From the NCBI GenBank assembly GCA_010093995.1, contig ML992536.1, positions 1 through 47,072 of the forward strand: 47,072 bases of DNA, written 5' to 3'. The notes beneath the pieces were generated by a model. It did not search any database and was not told the DNA's origin. It was given only the letters and a program-made list of their open reading frames with translations. Positions 1-31,454 of the stretch are shown here, piece after piece. The DNA is from Elsinoe ampelina. Taxonomy: Eukaryota. The position numbers and the translations under genes are program-made. The stretch's first letter is position 1; the number at the start of each line of letters is the position of its first letter.

Positions 1-77
1 TAGAGGCTATAGTAGCGATAGAGGCTATAGTAGCGATAGAGGCTATAGTAGCGATAGAGGCTATAGTAGCGATAGAG
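1..77. repeat. 18-bp tandem repeat TAGAGGCTATAGTAGCGA, >=4 copies, truncated by window edge
   Basis: Directly visible. On the minus strand it reads in frame as (S-I-A-T-I-A)n within the relic ORF starting at 448. Confidence 0.95.
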
Positions 78-448
78 TTGTCGTTACTAAAGAAGTCCTT
101 GTCCCTATAGATCTCGTCGTTACTATCGTTAGGATTATACTTGTTATTCTTCTCGCTAGAGTATATAACCTTAACATACTTATACTAGTTAATAAGATTA
201 CCTTTAACGTTATAAACCTTATTATAGTCGAAGTTAGAGCGCTTAATAAAAGCCTATAGGAAAGGGTCGACGATAAGGTTAAGGCTTTAGATCTAGTCTA
301 GAGTAAAGGAGATATTAGTATCGGTACTAATTATCTATAGTATGTAGTAGATTCCCTTAAGCGTAGTATACTTTCGTTCGTCTAGGGTAAGTAAGGTAGT
401 AATAGTAGTAGCTAAGGCTTAGGCTTACTAGGGTCTAATTCTAGATAT
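1..448 (-). pseudogene. RIP-inactivated ORF, unknown product, hexapeptide repeat, runs off window
   Basis: One frame from ATA (ex-ATG) at 448 to the edge with sparse TAA/TAG (Q/W-derived): ...LLTLDERKYTTLKG...LNLIVDPFL*AFIKRSNFDY...DKDFFSNDN(SIATIA)n. Confidence 0.6.
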
Positions 449-1508
449 AGTAAATGTAAGTTAGTAGTCGTAGTATACTATATATATAAGAGTCGATAGT
501 GTAGTAAATTAAATTAAGTGTTTAATACCTCTATCTAGGGGGGAGGAAACTCCCTAATATACTAGTAGTTAAGGAGGAAGATATTTACTAGGTATAGTAA
601 GTAGTCTACTATTACTATTAAATATACCTTTAAGCAAATATTTGCTACACTACTCTAGAGTCTATAAACGTAAACAAATCTCTATAAAGGGAGGCTAAAC
701 CTTAGATAATTAGCTTAGCGTCGCTTCTTAATTATATATAACTAATCTCTTAATATACTAAGTAACACTATTATTAGGTCGTTATATATAGTTGTTAGAC
801 ATAGCTAATTAAGGTAGTGTAGACTATCGACTATAGCGCTAGATAGAGGCCTTATTAGGCGTATATCCTATTATATAAATAGTCGAAGCTCTTTCTCGTA
901 GCTAGTACTAATTCTAATCTCGCTTATAGTTATTTTACTCGTAGCAATCCGTAGCATGTAAGTAGATCTAATACCTCTAGATGTACTAACTAGTAGAGAA
1001 GGTAGCTAAGAGAGCGTTTTACTCCTTAAGTAGTAGAAGTTAGGGCCTTAGCGCCTATACCTTACCTAACTTACTAGAATTGTTAATTCTACTCGGTCCG
1101 AGAGATAATAGACAATAGTAGCAGCTATACTCTAGATAGAGATTCTAAAATAAGGGACGCTCTAGTAAGGTATTATAGTAGGTACTATACTACGCTCGAG
1201 GCTATAGTCTTTAGGTACATTACAGCTATATAGACGAAGTATAAGGAGGCATTAGGTTTGTTAAAGAATATACAAGCTTAAATTAGACTACTATTTAGCT
1301 ATTCTAAAGAACAAATAAAGCGCTAAGTACGTATAGATTAAAGAGAGAATAAAGATAGCTAAGGAGGTAGAAAGTATATAGATAAAATAAAAGTATTAAT
1401 ACTATTTTAGACAGTAAATGTAATACTATACGTAGGGGTAGATATTATAGAGGGAATCTAACGGGATAAGGTTTCCTAGCGCCGAAGATTAAGTAAGCCT
1501 AGCTTAAA

Positions 1509-2903
1509 TTATATATAGATATACGTACCTTCTGTTTCTAAGAAGTAGGCGATAGTAGTATAGATAAATCGTTCTACCTTAGGATTACTCTATATAGGCA
1601 TATTAGAAAGTCCGCGCAAGATAATACTTATAAGCTTACTAATACTATCTATAGACCGAGGCGTAGTTATAAATAGATTAGGTGTAGCGCTACGCTAGCG
1701 AGCTAGGTAGCTACTACTAAGTATCGAAGATAGTACAGAACTACCTCGAGAGATAGCTATAAGAGCCTAAGTCCTAGTAAGTAGTATAGAATAACGAGAA
1801 GGAGACTAGGTAAGGAGGAGAATACTACGCGAAGAATCTATTATAGAACTAAGAGGATAATTAACATCGACCTCTAGAATCGCTAGATAAAGAATATAAG
1901 ATCGACCGTTTATAATAGTATAAGTAGGACCTATAGTAGGAGAGCGTATAGTAGTTAAAGGGTCTATAACTACTAGAATAGTAAGCTACGCTAGAGAGAC
2001 CGTAGAGGTATAAGAGCCGGCAGAATAGGAGCGTATAGTAGATATAATAGGCCTATCTAGCGGATAGCGTAGAATATAGGCTAGTTAGCTAGTAGAGTCG
2101 TTTCTAACGAGAAGCAGATAGAGGCCGCGTACTATAAAGCTCTCTCTAATTACTAAGTTAAGGTTCGGAAGGGACTAACTATAAGGAATAAGCTAATTAA
2201 TACTTATACGTAGATTTATAAACGCTAAGGAGGTTATTATAGGTAAGTTTCGTAGGACTATATCGGCTATAGAGCCCGCGATAGTATACGTCTTAGTATC
2301 GCTACTAGCTTAATAGTAATAAGTTAAGGTCGTATTACTATTATAGTGCGTATCTACGCCGGTTCTACCCTATAGGCGGATGTTAGTAGTGTCTATAGAG
2401 CGAGGATTAGGACTAGTAGAGAAGTTATAGGAAACGTCTCCTACTACGTATTAATAAGATAAAGCCTAGATAAGTAAGTCTTCAAGCTCTTCGACACTCT
2501 ATTATAGGTCCTAAGTACTCTATAAGAGGTATTAAACCGAGCGTAATAAGTTCGAATTAGAACTACTAGAGCGATCTCTATTACGAGCTAGTAGAAGGTC
2601 TACGTACTAAGTATAAATACCTTTATATAGAGGAGGTTATAATTCCTACTACGTAGTACTACTGTATATAGAGCTAGGCGGAGAGGCTAAACCCGAAGGG
2701 TCTAAAGTAGAAGCCTAAAGTCTATAGGCCTAGTTAGGTAAGATACCTCCTTAAAGTAGTATATAGAGAGCTTATAGGTAATTATTCCTAACGCGACTAT
2801 TCGAGGTGTCCCGACTATTAATAAGACTATTGTAAATGCCAACACCCTCTTCTTATTCTTATAGAAGTATATAATAGGTATCCGACCTCTAAGACGTAGC
2901 TAT
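1509..2903 (-). pseudogene. RIP-inactivated ~465-codon ORF, unknown product
   Basis: Start context TAAA-ATA-G (de-RIP CAAAATGG). A single frame is maintained for 1,395 nt with only scattered TAA/TAG. 3' end approximate. Confidence 0.6.
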
Positions 2904-3593
2904 TTTACGTATAACTAGAAGAGGTATATAAAGGCCTAGAGGGTATCTACGATTAGGCTAGAGAAGAGTAGAGAGGTATATACCGAGATGTTACGACTAA
3001 AATAGCTAGTTAGATACTAGGTTTAGGAAGGACTATATAGTTATAGCGACTAACTAAGATAAGTAGGTAAGTAAGTACGAAGTAGAATTAGTATTAGTAT
3101 ATCGAGAATGTAGTTAGTTAGGGGCATTAACTTAAATACTATTAGTTTCGTGTGTCCTATAAAGCTAATAGGTACATTAATTAGTTAGGCTATATACGTG
3201 CTCCTATATAATAGTAAATAGGGAGACTAAGAAGCCTAGAATAGGTCGAAGGACAATTAAAGCGTAACGAGTAATAAATCGTATAAAACTAGGGAAAGCT
3301 AGATAGAAGATTATAAGTAGGAAGATTTAGTAGAATTCGTCTATAGTGTAATTTAAATAGAGTTAAGGGAATAGAGTTCTTAATAGAGAAGTCTTAAGCT
3401 ATTTATACTATTTAATAAGGAAAGCTTAAAAGTAAGCTTAATAGTAATCCTATACGGCTAGATTAAGGAATTATATATACCTAGGTACTATAAGATTAAG
3501 AGAGTTACCTATTATAGTAAGTAAGTCTATTCTCTATACGCTAGAGTAGTATTATCTATAGCTTTTAGCGTTATAGTAGACTTTCCGTGTAGT

Positions 3594-4500
3594 ATGTCTA
3601 AATAGAGCTAAAAAGACATAAACGGACATATTAGTACGGATTATTAGTCGAGAGCAGTAGTAAGTACGAGTAATATTAAGGACGATTCCTAGTCTAGAGA
3701 GTTCCGTACCTATTCTCTCTATTCCTAAAGCTCTTACCTAAAGCTCGAGTAAGACGTATATTAGCTAGACCGAGATAGCCTTATAGCTAATAGACAACTA
3801 AACGACAAAGTTAATAGCCTAATTATAATTGCATCCCTATACGAGATAGTGTTAATTATATATAACTAAGAGAGTTACGTATTAGAATTTCGATATTAAA
3901 GCAAGGCACCGGATCTAAATCTCGTCTTAGTAGTAGTTTCCTATCCCGCGTACTAGCTAGCTATAGACTATTACGGACTATATCTACTACTATAGCTTAG
4001 CAAATTTTTCTCGCGTACTATAGAAGCTAATACAAATACCTACCTCCCCTATATTAATCCGATAGCTATCTAGAAGTAATAACAGTTATATAAGACTTCT
4101 AGAGTAACTTATATATCTAGTGTAGCTATAGTAGCGAACTTAGGTGGCCCCGCTTATAGGATCTTTACGATAGAACAATAAAGGCTATCGGCCGCTAGAC
4201 TAATAGGATGTCTTCTGTTCTATTATATAAGACCTTACCTCCTATAATAACATTCTAATTAGTATACATGTATCTATTTTATAGACTATCGTTTGTATAT
4301 ATAATGTAAACGTAGTACTAGCAAGGTTTATATATAATCCGCTAGCGCTCGAGTAAGATTATTATATATACTACTATTAGCAATTAGGACCTCGCGATGT
4401 TATAGGTAGGCTAGGCGAATATAGGGTATTAATAGAGACTTTATCCTAGATATATAATAAACTAAAATCTTAATCCTTATCTAGGAAAGAATACTTCTTC
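3594..4500 (+). pseudogene. RIP-inactivated ORF, unknown product
   Basis: Surviving ATG at 3594 followed by a stop-poor frame (MSK*S*KDINGHISTDY...DRDSLIANRQLNDKVNSL...VSYPAY*LAIDYY). End uncertain. Confidence 0.45.
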
Positions 4501-5167
4501 GTTAATAGACATTTGCTTCGTATAGTAGTCTATTATAACAGCACTTTAATGTTATTAAATTATATAGAAGCTACTATATCGTATATATGTTTTATATACA
4601 CCGCCTAGAGCTAGTCCTTCGGATAGGAATAATTAAAATAGACTTCTATAGTACTCTATAGAGGGATTCTAGCGCTATCGATATTACTCTACTTAGTTAT
4701 CCTACTAGTATACTACGCTGTTCTATCTCCTATTATAAGCGTAGGAAGCGATATAGAGATTACTCTTTCGCATCCCTACTATTAGTATCTATTAGCCCTT
4801 TTAGATTAGTCGAGATGCCTCTAATACGTCGTTTAGGTACGATATATTATTATTCTCTACTATAGCGATAAACTACTTTTACAATTAACTAGACTAGTAA
4901 GTAGCTTATAGTAAGCTATTTATCCCGTTCCTTAGAAATTACTACCTAATCGATAGGTTTCTAATAGTATCTACGCCTAGGCGGAACCTATTTAAAAGTC
5001 TATAAGAAGGTCCTCGTCGACCTATTTCTCCCTAACTTCTATTCTTACAAGCTCTTTACTAATTCTTAACTTCCTTACTACTAATTAGTACTTTAATAGT
5101 ATCTCTATCTAACGTATAGGTCGACGATTCTCTTAGCTATCTATTAGAGATAGATCGAGCCCTACGT

Positions 5168-5740
5168 ATACCTCGCTATAAGCGTACTAGGGTATATAAA
5201 TATATAAGGTCTTACTTTATAATAACTAACCTATTTTAGAATACCGACGAGAGCGATACTAGTTACTCCTCCTCTACTAGTAGTAAGAAGAGGAAGGCTA
5301 CTACTAAGAAGCTTACCTACCCTAGGCCTATTAACTTCCCCGAACTCCTTACCTACTTTTAGAAGCTTTAGAGTAATATATCGGCTACCGCTAAGGAGCT
5401 TTAGTAGGTTTATAACGGTCTAGTAAGGATTATAGATCTAGTTAAGAACGATAAGGAGTAGAAGGAGTTAGTATTTACCTATCTTATAGGGGCCTATAAG
5501 GATTACTATAACGACACTTAAGAGCTTAATAACTTTACTAAGGGTACATAGAAGAAGGTTAACTAGGTCTCTAGCTTTAATACCTACGTTAATACTACTA
5601 TAAGTCTACCGACTATCTACCTCTTATCCTCGCTAATATTTTAGAACGCTAAAACTATAACTAATAATAGAGGTATAGGTAGTAACTACGCTAAGGCCGC
5701 CTAAGGGTAGCTATAAGGTATAATACTAGGTAGCTAAGAG
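5168..5740 (+). pseudogene. RIP-inactivated three-exon gene, basic NLS-like KKRK plus helical region
   Basis: Exon 5168-5191 (ex-ATG PRYKRTR); intron 5192-5239 (GT...ACTAAC...TAG); exon 5240-5599 (NTDESDTSYSSSTSSKKRKATTKK...); intron 5600-5644 (RIP-hit donor ATAAGT, branch GCTAAT, TAG). Both introns are phase 0 and preserve the frame. Confidence 0.75.
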
Positions 5741-6125
5741 TGTAGGATTTCGAGTTTAAGATGCTATATAGTATTCTTAGAGGAGGAATTAGGATTTCTT
5801 ATAGCTTTACTCCTAGGCTTTTAGTACGTCTACTCCTTCGTTAGCTAGAGAATATAAATTTAGTTACCTACTAATTTAACTTGCCCTTATTATACTTAAA
5901 ATCGTGAATTTAGAGTCTTAAATAATCTATATCTTACTCTACTAGTTATTTTACGCATTAAAAGTATATAATAACCTTAGCTAAATAAGTTCCGATATAT
6001 CGGTTAGTTAATCCTCTATCTATAGCTACTTCTAACCCTATACTTTACTATATAGATCACTCCTAATCTATCTTATTACTATTACCCCTACTCCTAAGGC
6101 GGCCTAAAATCGGCTTACTTCTAGT

Positions 6126-7385
6126 ATAGCTAGTAATTAGACAATAGTTAGCCTAGAAGCTTAACTCTATAGCGAATCCTCCCCTAGTGTCGATAACTCT
6201 TCCTAGCTTCTAGTAGATAAAGTTAGTAGAAGAGGCTCCTTTATAGGACTACTACTCTAACTACTACTTACACCCGATAGACCTAATAGTAAAGATTAGC
6301 TAGATCTCGATATAACTACCCCTAACGCCTACGCTAGCCTCCCTATAGACTAAAATTAGTAGCGAAGCGTAGTCCTAGTCGACCCTTCTAGAGACCTTCT
6401 CTACCTTAATAGACTTAATTAGATCCTAAATAGATAGGAATATCTAGCTATAGTCGAGATATATTAAGACGAAGTAGGGATTATAGATCTTAACTATTTC
6501 TAGTAATGTCCTAGGGATCTAGAAGGTAAAGTATAAGAACTTCTAAGTTATAGTAGTAGGGCGAAACTCGAGGAGAAGTATAATTAGTATAACGCTAGTA
6601 TCTAGCCTACTTATATTAGTTAAATCGATAGCTAGGAGTAGGTTACGAAGGAGACATACGTATTAAATAGGGCTAACCTAGAGCTAGAGCTAAGAGTAAC
6701 TCTCTCCTCTAGAGTCTTCGCTTCCTATACTTAACGCTAGTAAGGCTACTATAGTTAAGATACGAAGTAGAGTATACTAGGTAAGGGGGCGCCTACGCTA
6801 TAGGTCCTAGCTACTAGGTCGGCGTACTTAACTTTCCCTATAGTAAGTAAGTAAAGAGTTTAGCCTAGTAGTATACTATATACCTCGTCTACCTCTTATA
6901 CTAAAGGTGTTATTTAGGGAGAGCGCGAGGAGATAGTCGACTAGAACTACCGTATAGGATTAATATATAAATCTAAAATAGGCGTCGTATATAATTACGT
7001 AGCCTATAATAGAGCTTAGTTCGATAAAGTAGACCTATAAAATAAGATACTCGAGGGATCTTAGAGCTATAGGTAAAGGCTAGTAAGTCCTTCTTATATA
7101 GTTATAACTGCCTTAACTAGCTGTAGGATCGCCTATATCTAGTAAGATCTCTAGATTATAATAAGTAAGGAGATAGTAGAGCTAGATTCCGGCGATAATA
7201 TTATATTAATCTAAGTCCTTAATAGTGCCGAGCTCGATATCTAGCTAATTATATAACTTAGCTATAGCTACGAGACGATCTTCGCGTTACCTCTATTAGT
7301 AAGCCTTCTATCGTATAAAGACTAAGACTATAGCGAGTAGTCTAGGAGTATAGTAGATATCGAAAGGGATAGACGAAGGTCGTAG
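6126..7385 (+). pseudogene. RIP-inactivated ~420-codon ORF, unknown product
   Basis: Single frame from ATA GCT (ex-ATG GCT) at 6126 with protein-like codons and Q/W-type stops only; no frameshift seen. Confidence 0.55.
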
Positions 7386-8039
7386 ATAAATATTAGAGCT
7401 TTCTTTATTATCTATTTTATTATATAAGTAAAGTATAATATATAATAAGTAGAGATTTAGAAAGAGTAGATTTAGGAAGAGTAGGTCTAGAAAGAGGAGG
7501 TAGGAAGTAGAGAATTTCTAATGTAATATAAATTATAATAGACCTAATTAAGTTTACTTTAATACCTAGTAAGCACTAGTAAAGTAGATACGGCATTAGC
7601 CTAATTCTCTAAGAGTATAGCGTCGCTACTAAGGTAATTCTAAAGTATGTCTTAAGACTTACCTTATATAGTAGAGAGTCTCTCGATTATATCGCTAGTT
7701 ATAGTGCCTAAGACTATAGATAGAATATCTGTACACGATATTATAAAAGTTAGATCTAAGAGTATTACGCTCTAGAGCTAAGAAATTACCTCGCCTACGA
7801 GAAGACGTAATATAAAGATAGTTAAAACTAGTATATTATAAGGAACAAAAGTATATAGCTTTTAGAATATAAGGTAGTTTAACGTCTTACTTCCGGGGTT
7901 TAACATTTAATCTAGTAAAGCTTAACCTTGGGACTATTTACGCTAATATCCTAATAGCGTATTTTAGGTAATACTTAAAAGTTAATTAGAATCTTTCTAT
8001 CTTCTAACGCTAAGCTATTTAGCTAAAGGACTTGTCTAT

Positions 8040-9150
8040 ATAGCGCTCGAGTAGACTATCTCTAAGTAAGGCACTTGCCCTTAGTAGTAGCTACTAGCTA
8101 CTCTTAGACAATGTTAGCCCTACTATTACTTATAGAGCTATAATAGTATACGAGACTTTATAGGAGCATCTTAGGACCGATAAAGGACAATACTACCTAC
8201 TAGCTTTATAAAGCCTATTATAGCTTATAAACGACTAGTAGATATATCTACTAGCACGAATAGTTATACCTTCCCTACGCGATAGCTTATCTACTATCGA
8301 TCTTACCTAGGTATAGAAAAATGTTACAATAACTGTAATAGAACGATATAGTAGAGTATTTAAGGCTCCGCTAAAATCTGCACTTACTGTAGATAAGCGA
8401 CAAAGGTTCTTAGAAGTAGAGATGTTTCGAGTAAGTCTCCTACTATTCTAGTAGGGAGAGATCCCTCGAGGCCGACACGAAGAGGTTAAGGAATAGTTAG
8501 CTATAAGGCTACAGTAACTAGCTAGTTCTATAGTAAGCTACTAGCTACTAACTAGATAGTTAGACATAGGAGAGGAGCTTACCTTCCGATAGTTAATAGC
8601 TAGATAGTTTAGTAAAAGGGGAAAAAGTTAGTAATAAAGGGTTCTAGAGAAGTACCTAAGTAGACTTAGTAAGGAGTAGAGAAACAAGAGCCTAATTAGA
8701 TAGTAAGTTAAGCTAGGGACTTATTATAGACAAGTTACTAGTAAAGGACTAGATTAAGTGTAATAATAAGTTTAGATAGGCCTATATAGCCCCGAGACTC
8801 TATAATAGTTTATTTGTTTCGCGCTAATTAATACGTAGAGGCAGTAGTCGGGCTACTTATAAAATTAATTAAGAATCTAGAACGAGAAAGTATACTAGAG
8901 ACATCGCTAGAGATTAGGTCCTATAGCTAAGGATCGGTCTAGTAAGAGGAAGTCCTCGAGGTATACTTCGGAGTATAATATTTAGAAAGAAGAAGTTAGT
9001 AAAGTCTATAATATTAGAAACCTTTCCTATACTAGCGAAGAAGAGTACGAATATATAGTAGAAGCCTACGATAGTAGCGATTATAGAGGCGGAGGTAACT
9101 ATAGAGTTAATAGAGGTAGAGGTACTTACGGCGTAAAATAGTAGAGCTAA
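8040..9150 (+). pseudogene. RIP-inactivated ORF with acidic/Gly-rich C-terminus, unknown product
   Basis: Frame reads ...DKRQRFLEVEMFRVSLLLF**GEIPRGRHEEVKE...KRKSSR...SEEEYEY...DSSDYRGGGNY. Start and a possible internal intron are uncertain. Confidence 0.5.
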
Positions 9151-9499
9151 GGTAAGAGGGTAGATAATAGTAATATAGTAGACTAGAGCAATTCTATAAT
9201 AATAACCCGAATTAAAGTCCTATAAAACTTAATACTATTAATTATAGAATATTGCCCCTCTATTACCTTAATCTTTATAATCGGTTAACTTCTTTAAAGG
9301 AGAAAGTATACTATTCCGAGATTTAAATATAGCTAAGTAGTTTTCTCCTTTTTATCCTACTAGAATTATTATTCTATACCTACGCTTCCTATAGGCTATA
9401 TCTATCGTTAATAACACCTCTTCTAAAGCTTAACTATAGAATTAGTAGGTAAGGTACCTCTACTCTAAGATCTTCCTCGATCTTTAAGATAGTTCTAGT

Positions 9500-10181
9500 A
9501 ATATATACTAGATAAATAGCTCGCACTTTAGGTTCTAGATCGTAACATACATAGTTATTAAAGGCCTCTACTAACATATGTCTTACTAGTAATAGCTTAG
9601 AACGAATACTACGTACTTCGACAATATAAATTCTTTATGTATCTACTAGACTATATAGAGTAGAGTCGATTATAGCCTTAACTAAGACTATATCTAAGCA
9701 GTTAGAAGCCTTCGAAGCTTAAGTATATATACGCTACAAAGTTAAAGACTAGCTCGAATACTAATCTACTATATAGAGGATTTGTACCCGAAGTAATCTT
9801 CCTTAATTACGTGTAGACTACCTAAGCCGCTATAGCCTTCTAATAAGAAAGTTATCGTAGCTATTTCCTAAAGTCGAGCTATCTTCTAAACCTACCTAAT
9901 CCCGTTATACTAGTGTATATAATCCAGGTCGTTAGTTACCTAATAATAGCTATATATTAGACCTAGGCTGCTTGCTTATATGTAATTCTTACTTATAGCG
10001 ACGTAGCTATATTAGATCTTACCTAGATATAGTAGGTAATTAACTCTTATATATACTTCGACACGGAGAGGGGGAACGTTAGGATAGAACGGGACCTAGG
10101 TAACCTAAAATACCTCTAGGTAGATAGCTTAATTAATCTATAGAGTAGTAAACCTACGTAGAGGGAGAAGTAGATAGTTAA
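9500..10181 (+). pseudogene. RIP-inactivated spliced gene, unknown product
   Basis: Phase-0 intron 9723-9776 (GTATAT...ACTAAT...TAG) joins ...TISKQLEAFEA* to RICTRSNLP*LRVDYLSRYSLLIRKL... in frame. A second branch/acceptor lies near 9570-9589. Confidence 0.5.
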
Positions 10182-10229
10182 TCTATTTAATACTTATAAA
10201 TATACTTTACTCGAAACGATAATCGATAC

Positions 10230-11210
10230 ATTATATAGAGTATTTCTATCTAGTATAATTATACCTTTCGCCCTTATATAAGATATTTGCTATATATTCC
10301 CTATCCCCTCGTTACTAGAAGCTAGTTAGCTACTTAGTAGCTAGGATAGAAGTACTATACCTAAGGCTATCGAAGGTCTTAACGGGTAAGCTATACTATT
10401 CTTATGTACTAGATTATAGAAGCCTATACTAGTAGGCAAATGCCCGCTATTAGACGGACTAATATAAGCGACTAGGAAGGTCCTAGCTCTTTCGCTACTC
10501 GTTTAATTCGTTTACGAGCGGTCTCTCTCTATACCTCGCCTCTTGTAATCTCTTTAATTTATCGTCCTTCTCTTTTAACTAGATATACTTATATTAGGTC
10601 CTCTTAATAACTTTATATATCTAGGGTAGACAGGAAGATCTCCTAACCTTATTACTATAGCTAGACTTAACTATAGCCTTAGTCTTCGATAGCCTTTACT
10701 CCGATCCTCTACTAGAGACCTCTCCTTCTAGAGCTTAAGAATAATCTCTAGGTACTTCTAGTTATAGCGCTTTATTTTAGAATTACTTATTGTTACAAGG
10801 AGTTACGCTTTTCTTCTAAGGACGACTTATCCTAGCCTTCGACTTTGTCTTTAGACTAAAGCTAGCTTTAGTCTTATCTATAAGTATAAGATAAGCTCGA
10901 ATAATATTAGAGGCTTACGAGAAACTTACTAATTACGCGGTCTAGTAAGCCCTAGCTAATATCTATAAGTAATTCTACGTTACTAGATTACTTAGAGGAG
11001 TTATAGAGACTAAGTACTTATATAAGCTTAATAATCTCTTCGACCTTATCGGTAGCTTTCTCCGCTCTATCCTAGCAGTAATAATATAGCATTTACTAAG
11101 TCTTTATTATAACTTTCACCGGTCTAGTAGCGGCGGGTAGTCCTATAGCTTAGAATAGTATTAGCACTATAAATAAGATCTCTACGAAGCTCGATAGACT
11201 ATCTCTTTAT
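10230..11210 (-). pseudogene. RIP-inactivated spliced gene with Myb/SANT-like domain
   Basis: Intron 10929-10878 (GTAAGT...TAG) preserves the frame. 10581-10441 reads *LKEKDDKLKRLQEARYRERPLVNELNE*RKS*DLPSRLY*SV**RA, which de-RIPs to WSKEKDDKL...LPGRSYQSVQQR, matching the Myb/SANT W-S-x-E-x-D-x-x-L...PGRS pattern. Confidence 0.6.
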
Positions 11211-11577
11211 ATAAAAATAGATACTTATAAATATATATTATAGAAATGTACTGGGATATCTTATATTAAAGTAGTTCAATCGCTACGGACATCGATAGTA
11301 CCTCTTAAAAAGCTATTAGGTAATATAATTAAGACAGGTAGCTACGGAGCTAAGTAAATTTAATTGTTAGCGGTTTATACTTACTTCTATACGACTAGTA
11401 CTATAAGTGGCCGCTTAAGACGAGATAGACTTATTTATATAAGTTCGATAAGTAGGAGGCGTACTAATTATAATAAATATGTGTCTCGTAATTAAAGGAA
11501 GCGTTTTTACCCTCGGGGACGGCGTTAAGCTATATTAAGGGCTATTTATATAACTAGCTACTATTACTATTCTAATA

Positions 11578-14500
11578 TTAATTCTATTCTACCGCTAGAG
11601 TAAACTTCGACTAGCGTAGTAAATTTCGTAGTAGATTACGGTTAAATACGTATAAAGCTCTAGTAGAGTATAACTAAATACTTAATTAATATAGAGTCTA
11701 GGATACATCTACTAGTATAGAGTAAGGTAGAGAAAATTTACTTAATTTCGTAATCGAACGTACTATTAGCTTTCGTATATACTATTTAGTAACTATTTAA
11801 CTATAGATACTCTAGTCGCGCTCTATTATAGATTTGTAAGGAGTAACTAGCGGTTAATATCGGTCTTCTACGTCTTTAACCTTATTAATACTTAGACTTC
11901 TACTAACTAGACACTCTATAATTTCGTTAGCTAGCTCGGACGCGCTTATAAGAAGAGCTAGATAGTCGATACGCTGTCCCTTATCTTTACTGTCTAGAGA
12001 TAGACTATCTAATCGAGCATCGACTAAGACTTTATTACTATCTAAGATGTCTAGGGAGACTAATTTATTAGTAGCTAGCTATAATAACTCTTAAGTTTCT
12101 ACGAAAATACTATGCCTATAAATACCGCCGGTTTTAAGATCGTTAGAGGTTAGAAGGATAGGTATTCCTAGTCGCGAGTATAGTAAACTTTAAATGTCGC
12201 TATAGGTATAATAGCTAACTATATCCGCTAGGCGACATAGCTAGACTACGAGAGAGAGATAGTGTTATAGTTTCGATGTTATATAACTCTCTAGACTAGA
12301 ATATTTAGGTTCTTATACCCTTCTATCGTATTTACCTAGAGATATATATTCCTTCGATCCTCCTTAGTCGTAGTCCTATAAAGGATTATAGTAGGCAATT
12401 ATAGCTTTCTAGAGTACATTTAATGCTTTATCTATACTTTTATCTAGATCCTCCTAAAATAGAGCATTAACATCTACCTAAGTAAGTATAAAGCGTAAGG
12501 TATACCTATATAGCGATAGAAGTGTATAGACAAAATCCCTAGATCGCTCTAGTAAGATCCGTAGAGAGTCGTATAAGACGTAGAATTCGTCGATAGACTT
12601 ATATAATTCTCTAGTATTAACTTTGTACAAACTATATAAGCGTTACGATTCGTAGCTCTAACTAGGCTATTAATTAGAAAGGAGTAACTATTCGAACTAT
12701 AAGAATAAGCTAGGCTGCGGTATATCTACTAAGTTAAGCTTATAGATTATAGTAGTTAGTTAGGCTACGGTAGTTTTATACTATACTTATAACAAATTTA
12801 TTATATCTCGAAATGTAGTTAGCCTATCGAATAGTCGCTTACTAAAGAATAGATCTATTACCTTTGTACCTAGAACTAAAGTGTTCTAAAATTAGGCTAG
12901 TATATCTTCTCTTAGGATATAGAGAAAGTAATTTTCTCTAGTATCGTAAAACATTAGAGCGTACTAGAATTTAGATATCTCTAAGAAGAAGTCTATCGAG
13001 CTAATCTTAGCTAGTCTAGCGAATCTAACTTAATACTCTATAAAGATAGGGAAAGAGATATAATTAAGAAAGACCTAGAGATCTATAGCTATAGACTCTA
13101 TAAGGTTAAATTCGATATATACTCCTTATAATTTCTTCGCTACCTTCTTAAGTTAGAGTATTCTCTTCTCTTATAGATTTAGATTATCTCTCTAACTCTA
13201 GAGTAGAGACTATAGTTAGTAATTCTCTAGTGTAATAGACTGTAATAAAGGGGCAATCTATAGCCCCCGTAGTAATTTAGGTATTAAAACGGTCCGATCG
13301 AGGTGTATTAATACGTTTATCTTAATCTATCGTAGTACGTCTAGATTAATATAGTAACGCTAAAGCTAAGAGGGAAGCGTAGACTATAAAGGCATCTAGA
13401 ACTTTAATAGGACACTTACGAGGATATAAGGTAGTAGAAGGAAGATGTCCTTACTATAATTAGCTATAAGTAGTAAATGACTATAAGCTACTACTCTACT
13501 AGTAACGTCCCTTAATATATAGATTTCGTATTTAACTATAGACTTTGTGCTCTACCGACTAGATAGAGCACCTATAGTAAATAGTACAACTATAGTTAAT
13601 AAGTCTATAGCTATAATATATACCTACGCGGAGAAACTACTATTAGCTAAATTATGTATCTTATATAAGTAGAAGACGCTATCTATAGAAGCACCTAGTC
13701 CTCCTAACTACTATATAAGTAAGTAGTAATATACGTGTAGTTCTAGACATACTAGGTATAAATAGAACGAAGTTTAATCTAAGGAGCTTAAAGGTAGTAC
13801 AGCGAGCTAGTATAGCTTTCTATATAGGACTTAGAAGGCTAGTAAGGGCATACTTGCCTAGATAATTAGTGTTATTATGTTTGTCTATCGAAGGGTGCTA
13901 AGTAGATAGTAGTTAAGGTTATTTAAAGCTTCGAGTAGGTAATATTATATTTTATACGGAATAATAGGATCTAGTATAGGAAAAACGCTAGCTATTTTAG
14001 TTTTATATCTCCTATCGTGTATTAACATATAGAGTAGAGCTATATATGTGCCGAGCGGCGTAATATATATAAGTACGCTACTAAGTAGGTATAGTTACAT
14101 ACTATAGTATATAGCATATACTAGCTCTATAGCGAACTTATCGTAAATATATCTTTTAAGAGAGATAGTACTCTTCTAGACGCCCGAGGGAGTAATATTA
14201 TTTAGATCGATCTAATCTAGCTTTAGTACTATAGGTCGAGGGGGTATTACTTCTTAAGAGTTAGTAGTCTCTAATATCGCTACGAGTAGAGTAGTAGTAT
14301 AGATAATACTATGTCTAATAATATTAGAGAAGCTTCGAGTAGGGAAAACTTAGTTAAGCTTATTAACTTCGGATCCTCGATACTATAACTTACTTAGGCT
14401 AGTATTTAGCTATTACATACGTAAAAAGAGTAGACTCGTAGCTGACTCGATAAAGAGTCTTCCTATCTTAGTAGTTACGTTTATTACTAGCGTTACAATC

Positions 14501-15777
14501 TTAATATACGAGCTAGAACTAAAAAAAGACTATATAGGCTCGATTAAATATTTATTCTATTTTAAAGGATATAGACTATCCTATTCTATTTCCGAATGCT
14601 TTTACTTTAGGTAGCTACGCTATAGCCTAACCTTTATCGCTAGAGCCTCCGGTTTCTCTACTAACTCTATATCCTTTATAAATACATCCTCGTCTATACT
14701 ACTATAGGCGTTAGTTAAGCGATTAGCCGACGCCTTCGTTTCTATTATGCTTGTACTAAGCGCTAGACTAGTTTTAGATTAAGATTACTAGCTAGGAGAG
14801 GATAGGGAGGTAGCTAGAAGTACTTTTATAGAACTACGTAAACCTAGCCTAACTAAGCTTAGCCTCTAGCGATCTACTAATTCTCTTCTAGGTCCTACTA
14901 TATCCGAGTCAAAATAGACGCTAATCTCTATAAGGTTATCCTCTCTAATACGAATAGTAGTTATACTCTCGATAAAGACACCTATATAGTTAAGCTATTT
15001 ATAGATAGCTTTAGAACGACCTTTATACTAGACGGATTATATAGAGGTTCTTCTAAGCTCTAGATAAGAAAGATTAGTTACTAGATATATAGTAAAGAAA
15101 TACTTTACTTTCGATTATACGCCGTCGAGTAGAAAGTTATTTAGCCGCGAGAGACTAAAGGAAAAACACAATTGTCTAAATATACACCCGAAGTTAATAG
15201 CTATGCTAACTATAGGAAGCTCTACTCGGTCCTTATATTACTCTTCCTTCTTCGTTAGATCTCGATACTTTAGGTTATATTAGGACTTAAAGTAATTAAA
15301 TGTCGTAATACTAGATGTTATAATTATTATAAAATACTTATTATAGAACATTATAAAAGGTTCTACGAGATAGTAGAAACATAATATAACATAGTTAGAA
15401 GTATATTATAAAAGGTAGTATTTATCGTAATTATCTATCCTACTAAAATTTATAGTATTTACTTTATGTCTTAGACCTTACAAACGGAGCTTTAGAGCTT
15501 CTAACGTATAGCTCTATCCTAAGCCTATATCGTCTATAAGAGTTACGACGAAATACGTACCTAGCTTATCTCCCCTTAAAAACAATAATACGTAAGCTTT
15601 AGTAGGTATCTTAGCTAGCGACATTCGATATATAGATAGTAAGTAAATAGGATATACTTATTACCTATAACTTACTCGAGCTAGTCCGAGGTATAAAGGG
15701 CCTTGGACTATATAGTCTATACTAACTTAGAAGACTTACAAAGCCTAGAAATGCGCTATAGGACTACTCTATTACAT
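11578..15777 (-). pseudogene. RIP-inactivated ~1,400-codon intronless ORF, unknown product
   Basis: ATG at 15777 and one frame for 4,200 nt without frameshift. Hand count is about 90 TAA/TAG stops (~6%, consistent with Gln+Trp codons converted by RIP). Spot-checked alternative frames are much more stop-dense. Confidence 0.8.
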
Positions 15778-15986
15778 TGTACTAGTATATAGATAGCCTC
15801 TACGAATCCCTATTTACGAGTATTACCTTTATTACCTATATAAGATTAGAGATAACTAACCTCTTAAGCTAATTCTATATATTATCGATAGCCTTATCTT
15901 CTTTACTTCTACTTCTTTCTCCTTTGTATATTATTAAGATAATAATACTATTATTTTATTAACCTAGTATTACTAACTTCTACCGC

Positions 15987-16088
15987 ACCTAATTATCCGC
16001 TGTACCTAATTATCCACTATACCTAATTATCTACTGTACCTAATTATCTGCCGTACCTAATTATTTACTATACCTAATTATCCGCTAC
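15987..16088. repeat. 6 x 17-bp direct repeat, core ACCTAATTAT, consensus ~ACCTAATTATCCRCYGT
   Basis: Cores start at 15987, 16004, 16021, 16038, 16055 and 16072 (exact 17-bp period). Copies differ by C/T and G/A transitions. Confidence 0.95.
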
Positions 16089-16317
16089 CTACCTATATAT
16101 CTTTATATAACTTCGACACGCTCTATATATCTAATCTTCTAATATTAAGTACTACGCAACTATTATATTAAATTTAGATTAGAGTAGACTATAGCTCGGT
16201 AATCGATTCTAGTATTTAGTAGGCCCCTAAATGCTAGTCTAGTCTCTAAGTATAGTGTACTTTAAAAAAAATCTGCTTAGCCGTTATTACTTCGATCTAG
16301 AGTCTTTAAAACCTACG

Positions 16318-19306
16318 ATGTTAGCCTTTAATAATTAACTTAGAGAGGCCCTACTCCGAAAGAATAACCTAACCTCTCTAGTACTTTCCCTATAATAACC
16401 CTAGTCTATAGCGATATTAATATTAACTTATTAACCTTAACCTCGAAGAGAGTCTTTAATAATAACTACCTTAGAAGCTATTACTCCCGACTACTAAGCT
16501 TCTAAAGCCTCGTTCCTAAGCGTCCCGCTTAATAATAGTATATCTATCCTTAGACTACTATACGACATCTATCCGACATATACTCGATATAGTATAACTA
16601 CCTTTAAGATTCTTCTCTACTATAGTCTCTCTTTAGCCTATGTACCTATTAAGCCTCTTATACCTTAGGAAACTTATCTAGCTTACGCCTAGATATATAA
16701 GTCCCCTCTAATCTAACTTTACTAATAACCTTATTATTCTATAGTAGAAGGAGTATTCCTTACTATTTTCTTTATAATTTCTAATATATTATAAAGATAT
16801 GCTTATTAATCTCCTAATCTACTAGTTATTAAACCTACCTAGACGCTAGTCTATTAGCCGCTAGAGGGGTAGGCTTAAGAGCGCTAAGAGTCGTAGGCGA
16901 CGTAGAGTAGAAGTTAATAGTAGTCGGGCATATAGTCTAGGACCTAGTTTTCTACGATGCTACAATTATAAGCACCTATCTAATAGGCCTTCGAATTATG
17001 TAGACAGATTAAATCTAGAACTTTAATAAATTTATTATCTTACTAGTCTAGAAAGGTTTTATATAAGACATCTATACGTACTATACTACTATAATAGTAG
17101 TTATAATATAGACTAAGTAACGTAGCGCATAGAGGTTCGTAGAAGACTCGATTAAAGATATTAGCCGCTCTAACGCCTAGAAATAGCTAGCGATAGTGAA
17201 TATAGATAACTAGGTCCCTACTCTCTATAATAGGGCTCCTACTTTCTTAAAGAGGTATCTATATATTCTTATCCTCCCCTTAGGTACTAGCTCGAAGTAT
17301 ACGACATAACCTATATTATTTATATAGGATTTTATAGTATAATAGCGTCGGAGCCTCTATAACCCCTCTAAAGACTAATTATAGATAACTAGTCCGCCCT
17401 AGCTAAGGGCAATATATTCGAGGCTTTATAACGGTATAGGTAGGTTATTAGGGGTTTTAAATTTGCATCTATAGATAGCGCTATTAATTGCTCGAGGACG
17501 TACTATAGCTCCTAGTCCTATACTAATCGTTTATAGACTCTATAATAAGAAGCTTAGCATAGTAGACCTAGTTAGTTAGCGCTCTTCGACGTAAAGAGTA
17601 GCTCTACTATAAATGTAATAAACTAACGCTATTAGTCGAGACTATCCTAAAGACCTATTATAGCTTTCTACCTTAGTGTCTACGCTATAGATCTAAGGTA
17701 TCTAGAGATTATACCTAATATATAGTAGGAAAGTAATTACGAAGGGTATATCTATTCGCAAAGCTACTATATTACTTTCTAATTCTCGAAAGATCCTTCG
17801 AATCTAGCTTAAGTAGTCCTAACGAGTTACTTACTAGAGTTATCTACCCTACTGCTTCTTATAACCTGCCTCCTTATACCTACCGGTTAAACTCTACTTA
17901 ACTAGCTTATAGATTTCCTTATATACTTCTACTCGAAGTTATCGGTCGAGTTAGATTAGTAGTTATCTAGAAGACTACCTTCGTAAATCCCTAGACATTA
18001 GTTAAGTTTCCCTAGTAGAGTTCTAAATTATCGCTAGAATATACTTAGTTACTCCCTTCTGAGAATTTACCTAGCTTCTTAGGTTTTAAAGCTACTATAG
18101 AGATCTACTAAGTAATATAAACTTGTGCCTTATAGCCTAGGATATAGGTAGACCTAATAAATCTTTAACCTCGACTTATAGACTTTAAGCTTATTATCTA
18201 GACTAGTAGTAGTCGTACTAATAATATAGGTAAGAGGTAAGTTTTTATTTAGTATAAGCTTAATCTAAGGATTAGACTATATACTAGTATATTCGAATCT
18301 ATACTAGCCTACTAGGAAGTAAAGGACAGCGTAATATAGTATTTCTCCTACACTTAAAGGTAGATATACTATGTCTCTATATTATTGTTACTAACGATGT
18401 AGCTTCGATTTCCTCTTCTACTAATTCTTAGTTAGAGCTCGAGGTAGTTAATAGATCGTATAAGTAGTCTACTTTCTACCTTAGAGTATTCTACTAGACT
18501 CGTTTTACACGATAATAGAACGTACTATTTCTTTTAATTAGCTACAATTTTAGGCTTTTAAGCTTCTAATAACTTTAGATAATACTTAGGTAGACCGATT
18601 ATATTAGATAGTCCTTGCTTTCTAATTACCTAGGTTTATATAGTAGCCTAGTTAACCTCTTAATAATAATAATAGGGATAGTAGTTTAAGTATAGGCATT
18701 ACTAGACGAATAGAAACTTCTACTCTATCTAGTAAGGACGTTGCCGATACTATAACGCTATAGTTAAGCTCTCTTACGTAAGGTGGAAGCTGCTATACTA
18801 CGTACTACTACTTGCTACGCTTATAGACTTTAGATTTTTTCGATAGTATTATAGCTATTTATGTAGAACGGTGCGCTCTAATCTAGTCTTTTAATAATAT
18901 AGTAATTAATGTTAGTTTATAGGTTAGCTAGAATGCTCGTTACTCTACCCTATAACTCTACTATTAGCGATATAGAATTCCTACTATACTATTAGATGTA
19001 TAGCGAGTTAAATTTATATAAGGATCTTAGCTATTTACCTATAACTAGAAGCGAGCTTAGTCTGTATCTACCTATTATATTACTTTTTTATCTCTTAAGA
19101 GATCTCGAGACCTCGCTAAAAGGTCTAAGCCTTTTATAGCGGAATTTCTAACAACTAGACTAATGTAATCTCCCTTATCTTCTCTATATCGACATAGGCG
19201 ACGTAGATACTTAGCCCTATAGTCTAGTAATATATATAGTCCTATCTAGAGATATTAGTATTATAGATAGTTAACGAGACATTCTAAATATGTAAGAAGA
19301 TAATAA
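16318..19306 (+). pseudogene. RIP-inactivated large multi-exon gene (or two adjacent genes), unknown product, possible CxxC
   Basis: ATG at 16318 and long stop-poor frames. A clear intron at 18360-18402 (GT...ACTAAC...TAG) joins frames in phase 2. Other introns near 16,700 and 17,500 were not resolved. FLRCYNYKH at ~16,950 may de-RIP to CxxC. Confidence 0.55.
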
Positions 19307-22206
19307 ATCATCTTTAAAGTTTAGCGCGAGGTCCCTATTAATTATAAGTCTACTTAGTACTAGACTTCTTATAAGTAACTACGTAGTAATAAGCGCTAGT
19401 CCTAAAGGCTTTAATATAAATCGGTAGAACTATGTATAGTCGTTTCTATCTCAAATGACAGATAAATCATTTACGTGGCTATAAGGTATATAAAGGCCTA
19501 TATTAAGTATGTATTGTAGCTTTAGTGAAATTCTGTAATATAATATAAATCACTATAGTAGCGGTTAACTAAAAGACTTCCTTATAGATTGTTTGCTACT
19601 TGTATTACGTTCTAGTTAACAAGTCTAGTGCTCGAGGTCCGAGTCTTGTCTTAGGTCGTTTGCTACCTATGTCTCGGGGTAGTGTAAGACCCCTATCTAC
19701 CACTCTATATTCTAACACCAACCCTAAGATTGTGGCTAAGACTATTATATAGTCTAACTAGCAGATTTGAACCCTCGATCTGGGACCGAGATGGGCCGAT
19801 CTAAAGGGATACGCAAAAATAATAATTATATAGAGTCAAGTAGTTTTAGTTTGACGAGCGTCCAGGACCATGGTGAGCAGCAAGGTATGATCGAAAGCAT
19901 GAGTGTGGTAATTTACGCTCAATTGAGACGATAACATTTTTGTCACACTCAAGTGCCATTGTTCCAAGCTAACCCTGATTCGACAGTGCGTGAGCACAAT
20001 GTTCCAAGCATAGGTCCCAGCCACAACTGCCAGACCATATTTGCTCTCAGAGAAGGCTCGGCGCTCGGGAGCGTTCTCTACCCCGGCAATAAGTACATTG
20101 GAGTAGTATCAGGGCATTGTGTATATGTGTTGTCGTGTAGAGAAGTAGGATCCTCGACTTCCAAGATTGCAGTTCGGGCTGCGGACTCCCAGATCCCAAT
20201 ACCTGACTCTCACAGTCAACTAGGCACTTTTCTCTGGTAGGAGAGTGTGGTGATCTCAGCCTGAAAGACGCCCGCTAGTGGTGTGGAAATTGCTGCACAA
20301 GTCCCGCTATGGCCTAGGTTCGCCGACCATTGTGACCCTCAATGTGATACCCGGCTTTCCTTGCACATCTACAGGAGCTGTGCCATGCGGATCGAGTTTC
20401 CTGGTAGGTGAGGACGCCGTCTATCGGAGCAAGAGAGTAGCGAAGCCGATGAAGCTGGTTCACGGAGATAGGAAGTGGATGTGAGACCATATCCAGATGA
20501 GGCATTTGCGATTTGGACAGACTGAATTGTAAGTGCGATGTAGATCGATACAGACAGGAGGAGGTCGGATCTGTGGTAGTACGACCAACGATCAGCTTTC
20601 AATTGCTCGCACGTCGATTTGCTCAGCCAAACACAGCGTGTCTTCGGCTAATAAAAGCGCCTTGGAAGACCTTCAGTACCAGATCATATCCCGCATCACA
20701 GTCTTCATCGTCGGGCGGAGCATGGCGGCCGACTCTGAGTGGTACTTGATCCCTGATGACGAGCAGCCGAGAGCCTCAGGTGATGAACGCAAGTTGGTAC
20801 ATAGTGGCGTGGTGGGTGTACATGAGAAGCCATGCGGCATAGCAAATGGGTAGAATTGCTACACCGACAGAAAAAAAAAGGCTACCGAGTGGCGACGGTT
20901 GAGCGAGGCGAATATAATGTATAGTAGGAAGTGGAGATAGAAAGATCTACGATATACCTGACATGACATTCTCTATTCCTTTGTTTGCAACGCTCCCAAT
21001 TGCAGCTCTTCTTTGTTCGAGCCGTCAATTACGCTTCGGGTAGGATCTGTACATCGACAGGGACGCACAAGCATTGCTACCGGTAGAGGTCTGCAAGGAA
21101 GAATTGATATTGCGTGCACCCGCTTGCAGCGACGACAGTACGGGCTTAGTCGTGAAGCCGCCGCCCCATCGATGTTCTGCAGGCGAGGGAGATGTGTAAC
21201 AAATGACATAGAATCTGCCAGAGAAAAAGACTGCTCGAGATTCCTACCAGTACAGCCCTGAAGAATGTTCCTTGCCAAGCTGGATAGGATGTGAGAGGAC
21301 CTGCAGCTTGTAGTACACTTGAGCTCCCTTGCAGGTCTTCCACAGCAAACCTTTGAGGTGCAATGCTCTGATCACCAACCTGCGTTGCTACGGGCTTTGG
21401 AGGTCACGATCGTAGGATTCCGACTGAGTTGGAGGATGGTAGCAACCCAGATAAGACATGCTTGAGTGGAAGGCAAATGATTGCCAATGTTGAGACTGGC
21501 TCTTTGGTGTGAGGAAGTCAGATGCTGGGACCGGTTTTGTCACATGTTTTTGTCTCGACGGGCGGCCGCGGAGTTGCTCGAGCTCAAAATCATCAGTGCC
21601 AGCCTTTGTCCCGCGCCGATAGCCGGCGGGCATGATTTGCAAGCGTCATGTCTGGCTTTCTTGGTGCAGAATCACGCAAGAAAAAAAAAGCTTCGAGCAC
21701 ACGTCGCAGCGCGCCGAGGGGCTGGCACGACTTTCTGCGGTGCACAAATCTCGTGCTTGTCTCGGGTCTCCCTCGCTGCCGGCTACATGGCCATTTTCTC
21801 TCCTCACTCTGTTCCAAGCAGACCATTCCGAGTCCAACACCCGAGGCTTGCTCCTGCTAAACCAGACAAGGCATCTCCGCCAGTCCAGACTGTGTGAAAG
21901 AAACGAGCCGAACGTGGGGAGATTTTTCTCTGGGTTGTTCGAGCTTGACCTGATCTGCCTGCCTGACGTGGGATCATCAACGGAGGTGCAGCAGCTTGCT
22001 TCCAACTGCATTCCCAATCCCCGAACTCGGATTCTTCCCGAACTGGACCAGAGGAACTGCAGGCTGTTATCTCGCGCCCACGCCCACCTTTCTTTCTCCC
22101 CTCAGGCAGTCCTCAAACTCCAGCACGAGCTCTACAGAAGTCGCACAATCCTTGTCACATTCCATACAAACCCATTTACCACGTCCGACACCACCCAACC
22201 GCCGAA

Positions 22207-29819: not shown

Positions 29820-30070
29820 GCTTGAATACGGATGATTGTTCACTCCGTGGGAGCTTGAAGCTTATCTATATTATTCCAAACATTACATACAAGTCAATCT
29901 GATTGGTCAATTCCTGAGCAACGCCCTTCAATTGCCCCTTCCGATAACCACGATCAGTCAGCATGCGCTATCCTTGGCGTTCGGATTTTGTGGAGCTCTG
30001 TTTTCGCCGCTATCAAAACTTCGCCTCTCCCTCCCTCACGGCCCCCAGCGGCCACCACACCTCCCACAAC

Positions 30071-31378
30071 ATGGCCGTCTCACGCACCCTACGGCCGAGC
30101 CTTTGCGCTCTACGCCCTCTACCTTGCCGCATATCTCTCCACCCTTCCCGCCTCTCCTCCACTGCCTCGACCTCCCCCTCGACCGAACCCATCTCCCCTC
30201 CCATCCCACCACTCACGCCCGCCGCTCCTCTCGACCGCCGCTCCACCCTCCGATCCGCCCCTCCCTTCTCCTCCTTCCTCACCGACATCTTCGGCCGCCA
30301 ACACGACTACCTCCGCATCTCCCTCACCGAGCGCTGCAACCTACGCTGCACATACTGCATGCCCTCGGCCGGCGTGCCCTTGTCGCCCGACGCCGACCTC
30401 CTCACCACCCCGGAAATCGTGTACCTCTCCTCCCTCTTCGTCGCGCAAGGAGTGCGCAAGATCCGGCTCACGGGCGGGGAGCCGACGGTGCGGGGGGACT
30501 TTATGGATCTTCTCGGGCAGATCGGGGGGCTGAAGAGCAAGGGGCTGCGCGAGTTGGCGATCACGACGAATGGGTTGATGTTGGAGCGGAAGGTGGAGGG
30601 GATGGTGGAGAGGGGGTTGACGGGGGTGAATGTCAGTTTGGATACGTTGGAGGAGGGAATGTTTGAGATTATGACGAGGAGGATGGGGTGGGGGAAGGTG
30701 ATGAGGGGGATTGAGAGGGTGCTGGAGATGAATCAGGCGGGGGCCGGGGTGAAGTTGAAGGTGAATTGTGTGGTTATGAGAGGGGTCAATGATGGGGAGG
30801 TGGTGGATTTTGTGGAGATGACGCGGGATAAGGATTTGGAGGTGAGGTTCATTGAGTATATGCCTTTTGATGGGAATAAGTGGGCGGAGAAGAAGATGGT
30901 GGGGTATATGGAGATGGTGGAGAGGATTAGGGCGAGGTATCCTGGGTTGAGGCGGGTCGGGGACGGGAGGAATGAGACGAGTAAGACGTGGGAGGTTGAG
31001 GGATTCAAGGGGAAGATTGGGTTCATCACGAGCATGACGCATAATTTCTGTGGGACGTGTAATAGGCTGAGGATCACGAGTGATGGGAATCTGAAGGTGT
31101 GTTTATTTGGGAATAGCGAGGTCAGCTTGAGGGACATGATGAGGAGGGATAATGAGGGGAGACCTATGGATGAGGAGGCGTTTGAGGCCGTACGAGAGAT
31201 TGAGATGAACAGACGCCAAGGACTGGTAGGAGTAACAGGACCACCAGCTTGGATAGATCGAGAGACGGAGCTTCTGAACATAATCGGTATGGCAGTCAAG
31301 CGGAAAAAGGAGAAGCATGCTGGGATGGGTCAGCTGGAGAACATGAAGAACAGGCCTATGATATTGATCGGTGGGTAG
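30071..31378 (+). CDS. cnxABC: Molybdenum cofactor biosynthesis GTP 3',8-cyclase (MoaA/MOCS1A), intron-retained form ending in Gly-Gly
   Basis: Radical-SAM CNLRCTYC, IRLTGGEP, second cluster CGTC...KVC, C-terminal RPMILIGG*. Mitochondrial-type presequence from the ATG at 30071 (CACAACATGG). Confidence 0.93.
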   Translation: MAVSRTLRPSLCALRPLPCRISLHPSRLSSTASTSPSTEPISPPIPPLTPAAPLDRRSTLRSAPPFSSFLTDIFGRQHDYLRISLTERCNLRCTYCMPSAGVPLSPDADLLTTPEIVYLSSLFVAQGVRKIRLTGGEPTVRGDFMDLLGQIGGLKSKGLRELAITTNGLMLERKVEGMVERGLTGVNVSLDTLEEGMFEIMTRRMGWGKVMRGIERVLEMNQAGAGVKLKVNCVVMRGVNDGEVVDFVEMTRDKDLEVRFIEYMPFDGNKWAEKKMVGYMEMVERIRARYPGLRRVGDGRNETSKTWEVEGFKGKIGFITSMTHNFCGTCNRLRITSDGNLKVCLFGNSEVSLRDMMRRDNEGRPMDEEAFEAVREIEMNRRQGLVGVTGPPAWIDRETELLNIIGMAVKRKKEKHAGMGQLENMKNRPMILIGG

Positions 31379-31454
31379 GTTCATGTGTCTCTTTACTTCT
31401 CTGGATATTTTTATGATCAGCGGCATGATGGACATGGGGCTGACGGATACAAAG

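Follow-up and report, generated by a model that had tools for sequence, protein, structure and literature searches.

The window analyzed here is the whole 47,072-nucleotide (nt) stretch of Elsinoe ampelina DNA at positions 1 to 47,072 of contig ML992536.1 (GenBank assembly GCA_010093995.1). Its left part is an AT-rich block altered by repeat-induced point mutation (RIP). Within this block, a single minus-strand frame of about 4 kb carries a low density of stop codons, which is very probably the remnant of a former coding region and is referred to here as the ghost open reading frame (ORF). The features on which the analysis depends are as follows.

1 to 19400, no strand: RIP-mutated AT-rich block, which encloses the ghost ORF and is truncated on its left side by the contig end.
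11700 to 15656, minus strand: core of the ghost ORF, 1,319 codons in a single frame with 78 in-frame TAA or TAG stops (5.9%).
11578 to 15777, minus strand: the 1,400-codon reading of the original prediction, with 91 stops; its first and last ~40 codons are at background stop density.
11579 to 15778, plus strand: shadow frame whose third codon positions are aligned with those of the minus frame, with 103 stops in 1399 codons (7.4%).

The original prediction, which was made from the sequence and named no strand, described one frame of 4.2 kb with a stop density of about 6%. This density was recovered on the minus strand, where the reverse complement of 11578-15777 begins with ATG and contains 91 stops in 1400 codons (6.5%). 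The coordinates fit this frame exactly, the high base, 15777, being 0 mod 3. A plus-strand reading at exactly 11578-15777 was rejected, as it contains 167 stops in 1400 codons (11.9%) and is the second worst of the six frames. The shadow frame ranked next to the minus frame, and the other four contained 153, 164, 167, and 176 stops (10.9-12.6%). Stops were distributed unequally among the three minus frames (chi-square p = 1e-6).

The same frame emerged when all six frames of 1-19.5 kb were scanned for low-stop segments. The top segment was minus 11701-15657, with 1,319 codons, 78 stops, and a score of 27.6. In 100 first-order Markov simulations matched to the composition of the block, the maximum score averaged 10.8 (standard deviation, 2.2) and never exceeded 17.8. 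When frame switching was allowed, the Viterbi path held one frame over 11700-15656 at switch probabilities of both 0.01 and 0.001. Thus, the long, intronless, and frameshift-free former ORF that had been proposed was borne out, with a length of about 1,320 codons (the core at 11700-15656) and possibly up to 1,400. Its true start and stop are not readable, because RIP destroys ATG and makes stops. Further low-stop stretches in other minus-strand frames lie downstream of the ghost ORF, at 9705-11708 (7.6% stops), 6267-8720 (6.5%), and 1362-2450 (3.9%). Their scores fall inside the simulated null range and they gave no Pfam match; they may be remnants of additional ORFs in this block or may have arisen by chance.

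The block around the ghost ORF carries a strong RIP signature. From position 1 to ~19,400 the guanine-plus-cytosine (GC) content is 31-38%, and in the remainder of the window it is 49-61%. Cut-offs commonly used for RIP are 0.89 for TpA/ApT and 1.03 for (CpA+TpG)/(ApC+GpT). In 1-kb windows, TA/AT was 1.48-2.34 in 1-20 kb versus 0.35-0.87 in 20-47 kb, and (CA+TG)/(AC+GT) was 0.06-0.28 in the block, with 0.59 in its last kilobase, versus 1.03-1.59 in 20-47 kb. Both indices therefore mark a RIP-mutated block of at least 19.4 kb. Dinucleotide depletion in the block was limited to CA and TG (observed/expected ratio, 0.16), TA was in excess (1.7), and CG was undepleted, so RIP here was CpA specific and close to saturation. 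The ancestral GC content of the block, estimated from the gain of TA, was ~49%.

RIP converts Gln and Trp codons into stops, His and Cys codons into Tyr codons, and Met codons into Ile codons. The codon census of the 1,400-codon minus reading showed exactly this imprint, with 40 TAA, 51 TAG, no TGA, 2 CAA, 3 CAG, no TGG, and 9 ATG codons, together with 11 His and 6 Cys codons. In the translated reading, W accounted for 0.0% of residues, H for 0.8%, C for 0.4%, and M for 0.6%, with Y at 7.8%, I at 10.1%, and L at 16.1%. This census is the expected result of RIP on a real ORF. It also agrees with the earlier suggestion that the stops correspond to lost Gln and Trp codons, because the stops are TAA and TAG only, TGG is absent, and just five CAA or CAG codons remain. 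The changes have the transition-only character of RIP, as seen in the stop types, the CA/TG depletion, and the maintenance of one frame over 1,319 codons.

A live gene in which TAA and TAG are read as Gln is excluded, because the 1,400 codons contain no Trp codon and very few codons for Gln, His, Cys, or Met. Reading the stops as Gln in the minus frame gave no homologue in the protein searches. Here the original prediction, which had envisaged a very large protein invisible to normal annotation, has to be amended: with 91 stops in its frame, the locus is dead, a pseudogene presumably without any present function.

As a control, saturating CpA RIP was applied in silico to five Pfam-verified ORFs of the host. 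After mutation, the sense frames contained 2.5-6.1% stops and the wobble-aligned antisense frames 4.6-9.0%, with the sense frame lower in 5/5 cases; in ORFs of more than 400 codons, the remaining frames contained about 7-13% stops. The RIP-mutated host ORFs reproduce the stop pattern of the ghost frame.

The minus strand is very likely the sense strand. In addition to the lower stop count (91 versus 103 in the plus shadow frame), the coding statistic (G1-G2)-(C2-C1) was +0.087 for the minus strand and -0.087 for the plus strand, and simulated host sense frames ranged from about -0.01 to +0.08. The G1-rich statistic of the minus frame was at least 0 in 7/7 600-nt blocks of 11458-15657 (0.0 in one of them) and at most 0.01 in four blocks outside. 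On the plus strand, the loose Viterbi setting recovered just 13521-15278, and the strict setting left no call at all.

The search for a protein family was uniformly negative, as the original prediction had anticipated from the lack of a recognizable family or of any motif it had listed; neither a clear match to a transposable element (TE) polyprotein nor one to a housekeeping gene appeared, and stop density was unequal across the six frames. Nineteen translations covering six frames of 1-20302, with stops written as X or Q, gave no Pfam match at E<=0.1 (E<=1 for three of them). NCBIfam and PHROGs gave no match for the minus or the plus reading. For an exhaustive phmmer search, 1200 residues from the minus reading (positions 12103-15702, with Q for each stop) were compared with 1.84 billion representative sequences, which gave 0 hits at E<=0.001, and a word-based protein search with both strands found none at E<=10 among 7999 and 8000 scored candidates. 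Against PDB sequences, the minus reading had a single chance match (E = 1.2) and the plus reading none. Scans of metagenome and viral contigs gave 156 and 16 pattern matches, respectively, none of which was confirmed. AlphaFold2, run on the ghost reading without an alignment, gave a mean predicted local distance difference test score of 33.3, too low for the model to be of use.

In a RIP-aware motif scan, in which every TA could stand for an original CA or TG, the ghost frame showed no Walker A, YxDD, D[ST]G, CCHC, Zn2Cys6, DEAD, HRD, GDD, or polB motif. Patterns of a looser kind occurred at the level of the control frames, with the exception of an HUH-like pattern, whose three matches at codons 671-682 (0-1 in control frames) lie on a run of Tyr codons. 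No internal protein repeats were found in the ghost reading, and Rfam gave no match over the whole window.

The effect of RIP on detectability was measured on a host ORF with 120 homologues. With 87% of its CpA/TpG sites mutated, it kept 83-85% identity and 79-83% of its phmmer score. At the load estimated for the ghost ORF (0.46 transitions per codon), 75-77% identity and 72-76% of the score were kept. Ordinary relatives should therefore have been detected, but a relationship as remote as that to a divergent DDE core might have escaped.

The block was also examined for signs of an element, of which the original prediction had taken the ghost ORF as possibly the defining gene. Direct or inverted repeats were absent from 1-20.5 kb by blastn. 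A transition-blind comparison in the purine/pyrimidine alphabet gave only one long match, an array at 15979-16088, all others being at most 46 nt. No long terminal repeats (LTRs) or terminal inverted repeats (TIRs) delimiting an element were found, the left side being truncated by the contig end, and no transposase, reverse transcriptase (RT), or recombinase domain was found in the 20-kb block by Pfam in six frames of 1-20302. Copy number was assessed in two runs that contain this DNA and are probably its source, X1 and X2. At >=80% identity, the contigs of each run included one covering contig and otherwise matches of 18-21 nt, some records having been filtered out. With that caveat, the block looks single-copy, and the duplicated partner that RIP would have needed is absent from the contigs of X1 and X2.

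Taken together, our preferred and moderately probable reading is that the stretch is the RIP-killed remains of one long, intronless, minus-strand orphan gene that came from low-copy mobile or lineage-specific DNA. The long ORF would have lain within a block once present in at least two copies, because RIP acts on duplicated DNA. CpA-to-TpA RIP to near saturation turned essentially every CAA/CAG and TGG codon into TAA or TAG and removed most His, Cys, and Met codons. The frame stayed unbroken because RIP makes transitions only. The partner copy would later have been lost or segregated away, leaving only the present copy. That no frameshift has accumulated over 4 kb suggests, given the usual share of indels in neutral change, that the gene died recently. 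The gene itself may have been a cargo or structural gene of low-copy mobile or lineage-specific DNA, neither a canonical transposon enzyme nor a conserved host gene. An origin in a mobile element or lineage-specific DNA is, in itself, probable. A conserved host gene is unlikely because the ghost reading matches nothing in the fungal proteomes that the host MoaA protein finds easily.

Other explanations were weighed against this one. It is quite unlikely that the plus strand (the frame from 11579) is the true sense and the minus frame its shadow. The plus frame does have few stops (103/1399), fewer than the minus frame in some blocks such as 14278-14877; its low-stop run extends to 16168; and the exhaustive phmmer search covered the minus reading only. 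However, the sense frame had fewer stops than its shadow in all five simulated host ORFs, the G1/C2 statistic favors the minus strand, the Viterbi path calls the plus frame partly or not at all, and the plus reading found no match in Pfam, NCBIfam, PHROGs, PDB, or the word-based search. It is very unlikely that RIP-mutated noncoding DNA produced the signal by chance or through its composition. A fluctuation of that kind would fit the lack of a homologue and the patchy signal, and other low-stop stretches in the block score 13.9, 13.2, and 11.3, below the null maximum of 17.8. Nevertheless, the ghost frame scored above all 100 simulations and kept a constant phase over 4 kb, it favors G at first codon positions in the manner of coding DNA, and its stop density lies within the range of real ORFs subjected to RIP in silico.

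As for the nature of the gene, it is rather unlikely that the ghost ORF encoded a highly diverged enzyme of an established transposon superfamily, such as a DDE transposase or tyrosine recombinase (YR), whose short catalytic core is too distant from its known relatives to score after RIP. The size of the ghost ORF, its lack of introns, and its location in a RIP block would suit a TE gene. No simple motif marks the core of a DDE or YR enzyme (YR-like patterns of a loose kind were at chance, 9 versus 5-20 in control frames), and single-sequence phmmer misses profile-level relations. Against this, the Pfam profiles of fungal TE enzymes were empty at E<=0.1, though about 73% of the score should survive RIP, and no TIRs, LTRs, or other copy were found. 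That an ordinary, conserved host gene was duplicated here and then mutated by RIP is scarcely plausible. RIP targets any duplicated DNA, and long intronless host ORFs do occur in the window, such as the 846-amino-acid (aa) PPR gene, but the collections searched include Elsinoe and other Dothideomycete proteomes, in which MoaA finds proteins of 61-88% identity and the ghost reading finds none.

Several observations weigh against the orphan-gene reading itself. The signal is patchy, as the minus frame has the lowest stop density in 6 of 14 100-codon blocks and the lowest or second lowest in 11 of 14, and ~40 codons on either end of 11578-15777 fall beyond the supported core. No intact homologue was found, and the case for a real protein is a statistical one. 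With regard to strand, a codon-likelihood test trained on in-silico-RIPped host ORFs failed leave-one-out on its own controls, a TA-phase test was neutral, and the plus reading was covered by Pfam, NCBIfam, PHROGs, PDB, and the word-limited search, exhaustive phmmer covering the minus reading only. The sensitivity control used homologues 61-88% identical to a conserved enzyme, and distant relatives may lose more score. Finally, we infer an element origin for a block that yielded neither ends nor an enzyme nor a second copy.

A bolder version of the orphan-gene reading holds that the relic is the sole trace in this genome of a family of ~1,300-aa proteins without a detectable relative in ~15 billion predicted proteins. 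Its carrier would be a giant mobile element of low copy number, which recently invaded one Elsinoe lineage, was duplicated once, and was killed by RIP at once. This version is unlikely. If it were true, it would point to a so-far-undescribed kind of element gene.

Two further features adjoin the ghost ORF or delimit the block.

15979 to 16088, no strand: tandem repeat, reported by Tandem Repeats Finder as a 17-nt unit x5.7 and a 51-nt period; written as purines and pyrimidines, it contains a perfect direct repeat of 59 nt.
19400 to 19900, no strand: gradual loss of the RIP signature into normal DNA of 50-55% GC, as traced by TA and CA+TG counts in 200-nt windows.

The array at 15979-16088 lies 200-310 nt upstream of the first minus-strand ATG of the 1,400-codon reading. 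Some of its units retain CA/TG dinucleotides that RIP spared. At the right edge of the block, the RIP signature fades across ~500 nt of flanking DNA, as might be expected from leakage of RIP, and this fading masks the exact block edge. At the left edge, positions 1-77 form a perfect 18-nt tandem repeat (x4.3). The contig of run X1 that covers the block starts at window base 48, inside this repeat, and in the source contigs a 48-nt contig of the same repeat had 5-7 times the depth of the neighboring contig. The repeat has the look of a satellite at which the assembly breaks. The block is truncated at the contig end.

The right flank carries genes for a Kgd4-like protein (about 21.6-22.7 kb), MoaA, MoaC, a histidine phosphatase, and a PPR protein (846 aa). 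The host MoaA ORF is 88% identical to an Elsinoe fawcettii protein and 75% identical to an E. australis protein. The MoaA-like ORF (29948-31375) and the MoaC-like ORF (31379-32704), both on the plus strand, share one frame with a single stop codon between them. In the nearest Elsinoe proteins, which are 814-816 aa long, the annotation joins both parts in one MoaA-MoaC fusion. The stop codon probably lies within an intron or is bypassed. An intron-borne or bypassed stop between the MoaA and MoaC parts resembles genes of the MOCS1 type.

The locus can be regarded as a well-preserved ghost of an orphan long ORF, and its main value is as a query for future fungal assemblies. Frame statistics can still read long genes killed by RIP, a transition-only defense, even where all homology methods fail. 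On this reading, some of the "unrecognizable" AT-rich DNA of Elsinoe-type genomes would trace back to genes without a relative in the searched collections rather than to known transposon families. An intact copy, should a relative have one, would give access to a large unknown protein, possibly of a new low-copy element.

Comparison with the common TE classes gave no assignment. For a Gypsy or Copia pol gene, no RT, protease, or integrase was found by Pfam; RIP-aware YxDD or DTG matches numbered 0 in any frame; HHCC-like integrase patterns were at or below the level of the control frames (2 versus 3-23); and flanking LTRs were not found by blastn or by the transition-blind comparison. For a Tad1-like long interspersed nuclear element ORF2, Pfam showed no RT or endonuclease domain and the motif scan no YxDD or FxDD, and for a Helitron Rep/Hel protein, which combines an HUH nuclease motif with a PIF1-type helicase bearing Walker A, there was no Walker A motif and no Pfam match. 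A Plavaka/KDZ transposase domain, the Plavaka domain PF18759, and a chromodomain were likewise without a Pfam match in six frames of 1-20302, and there was no other copy.

The giant Starship elements carry a captain, a DUF3435 tyrosine recombinase, with DUF3723 and NLR genes as cargo. They are of low copy number, reach tens of kilobases, and contain many cargo genes of unknown function, properties that could explain a large, unique, RIP-mutated block. In contrast to Starships, the present block has no Pfam match to DUF3435 or DUF3723, no Walker A/NACHT motif, and no identified element ends.

The closest parallel is found within the genus. [quoted passage not shown] The block shares with those regions a GC content of about 33%, a position at a contig end, the lack of a recognizable TE domain, CpA-type RIP, and adjoining gene-rich DNA of normal GC content (52-54%) (PMC7259788). 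Thus, RIP-affected AT-rich regions without a recognizable TE are a phenomenon already known in E. fawcettii. The present block differs in that it has no second copy in the source contigs. It also differs in resolution: whereas the E. fawcettii regions are described only in bulk (PMC7259788), here one 4-kb frame can be read as a single former ORF.

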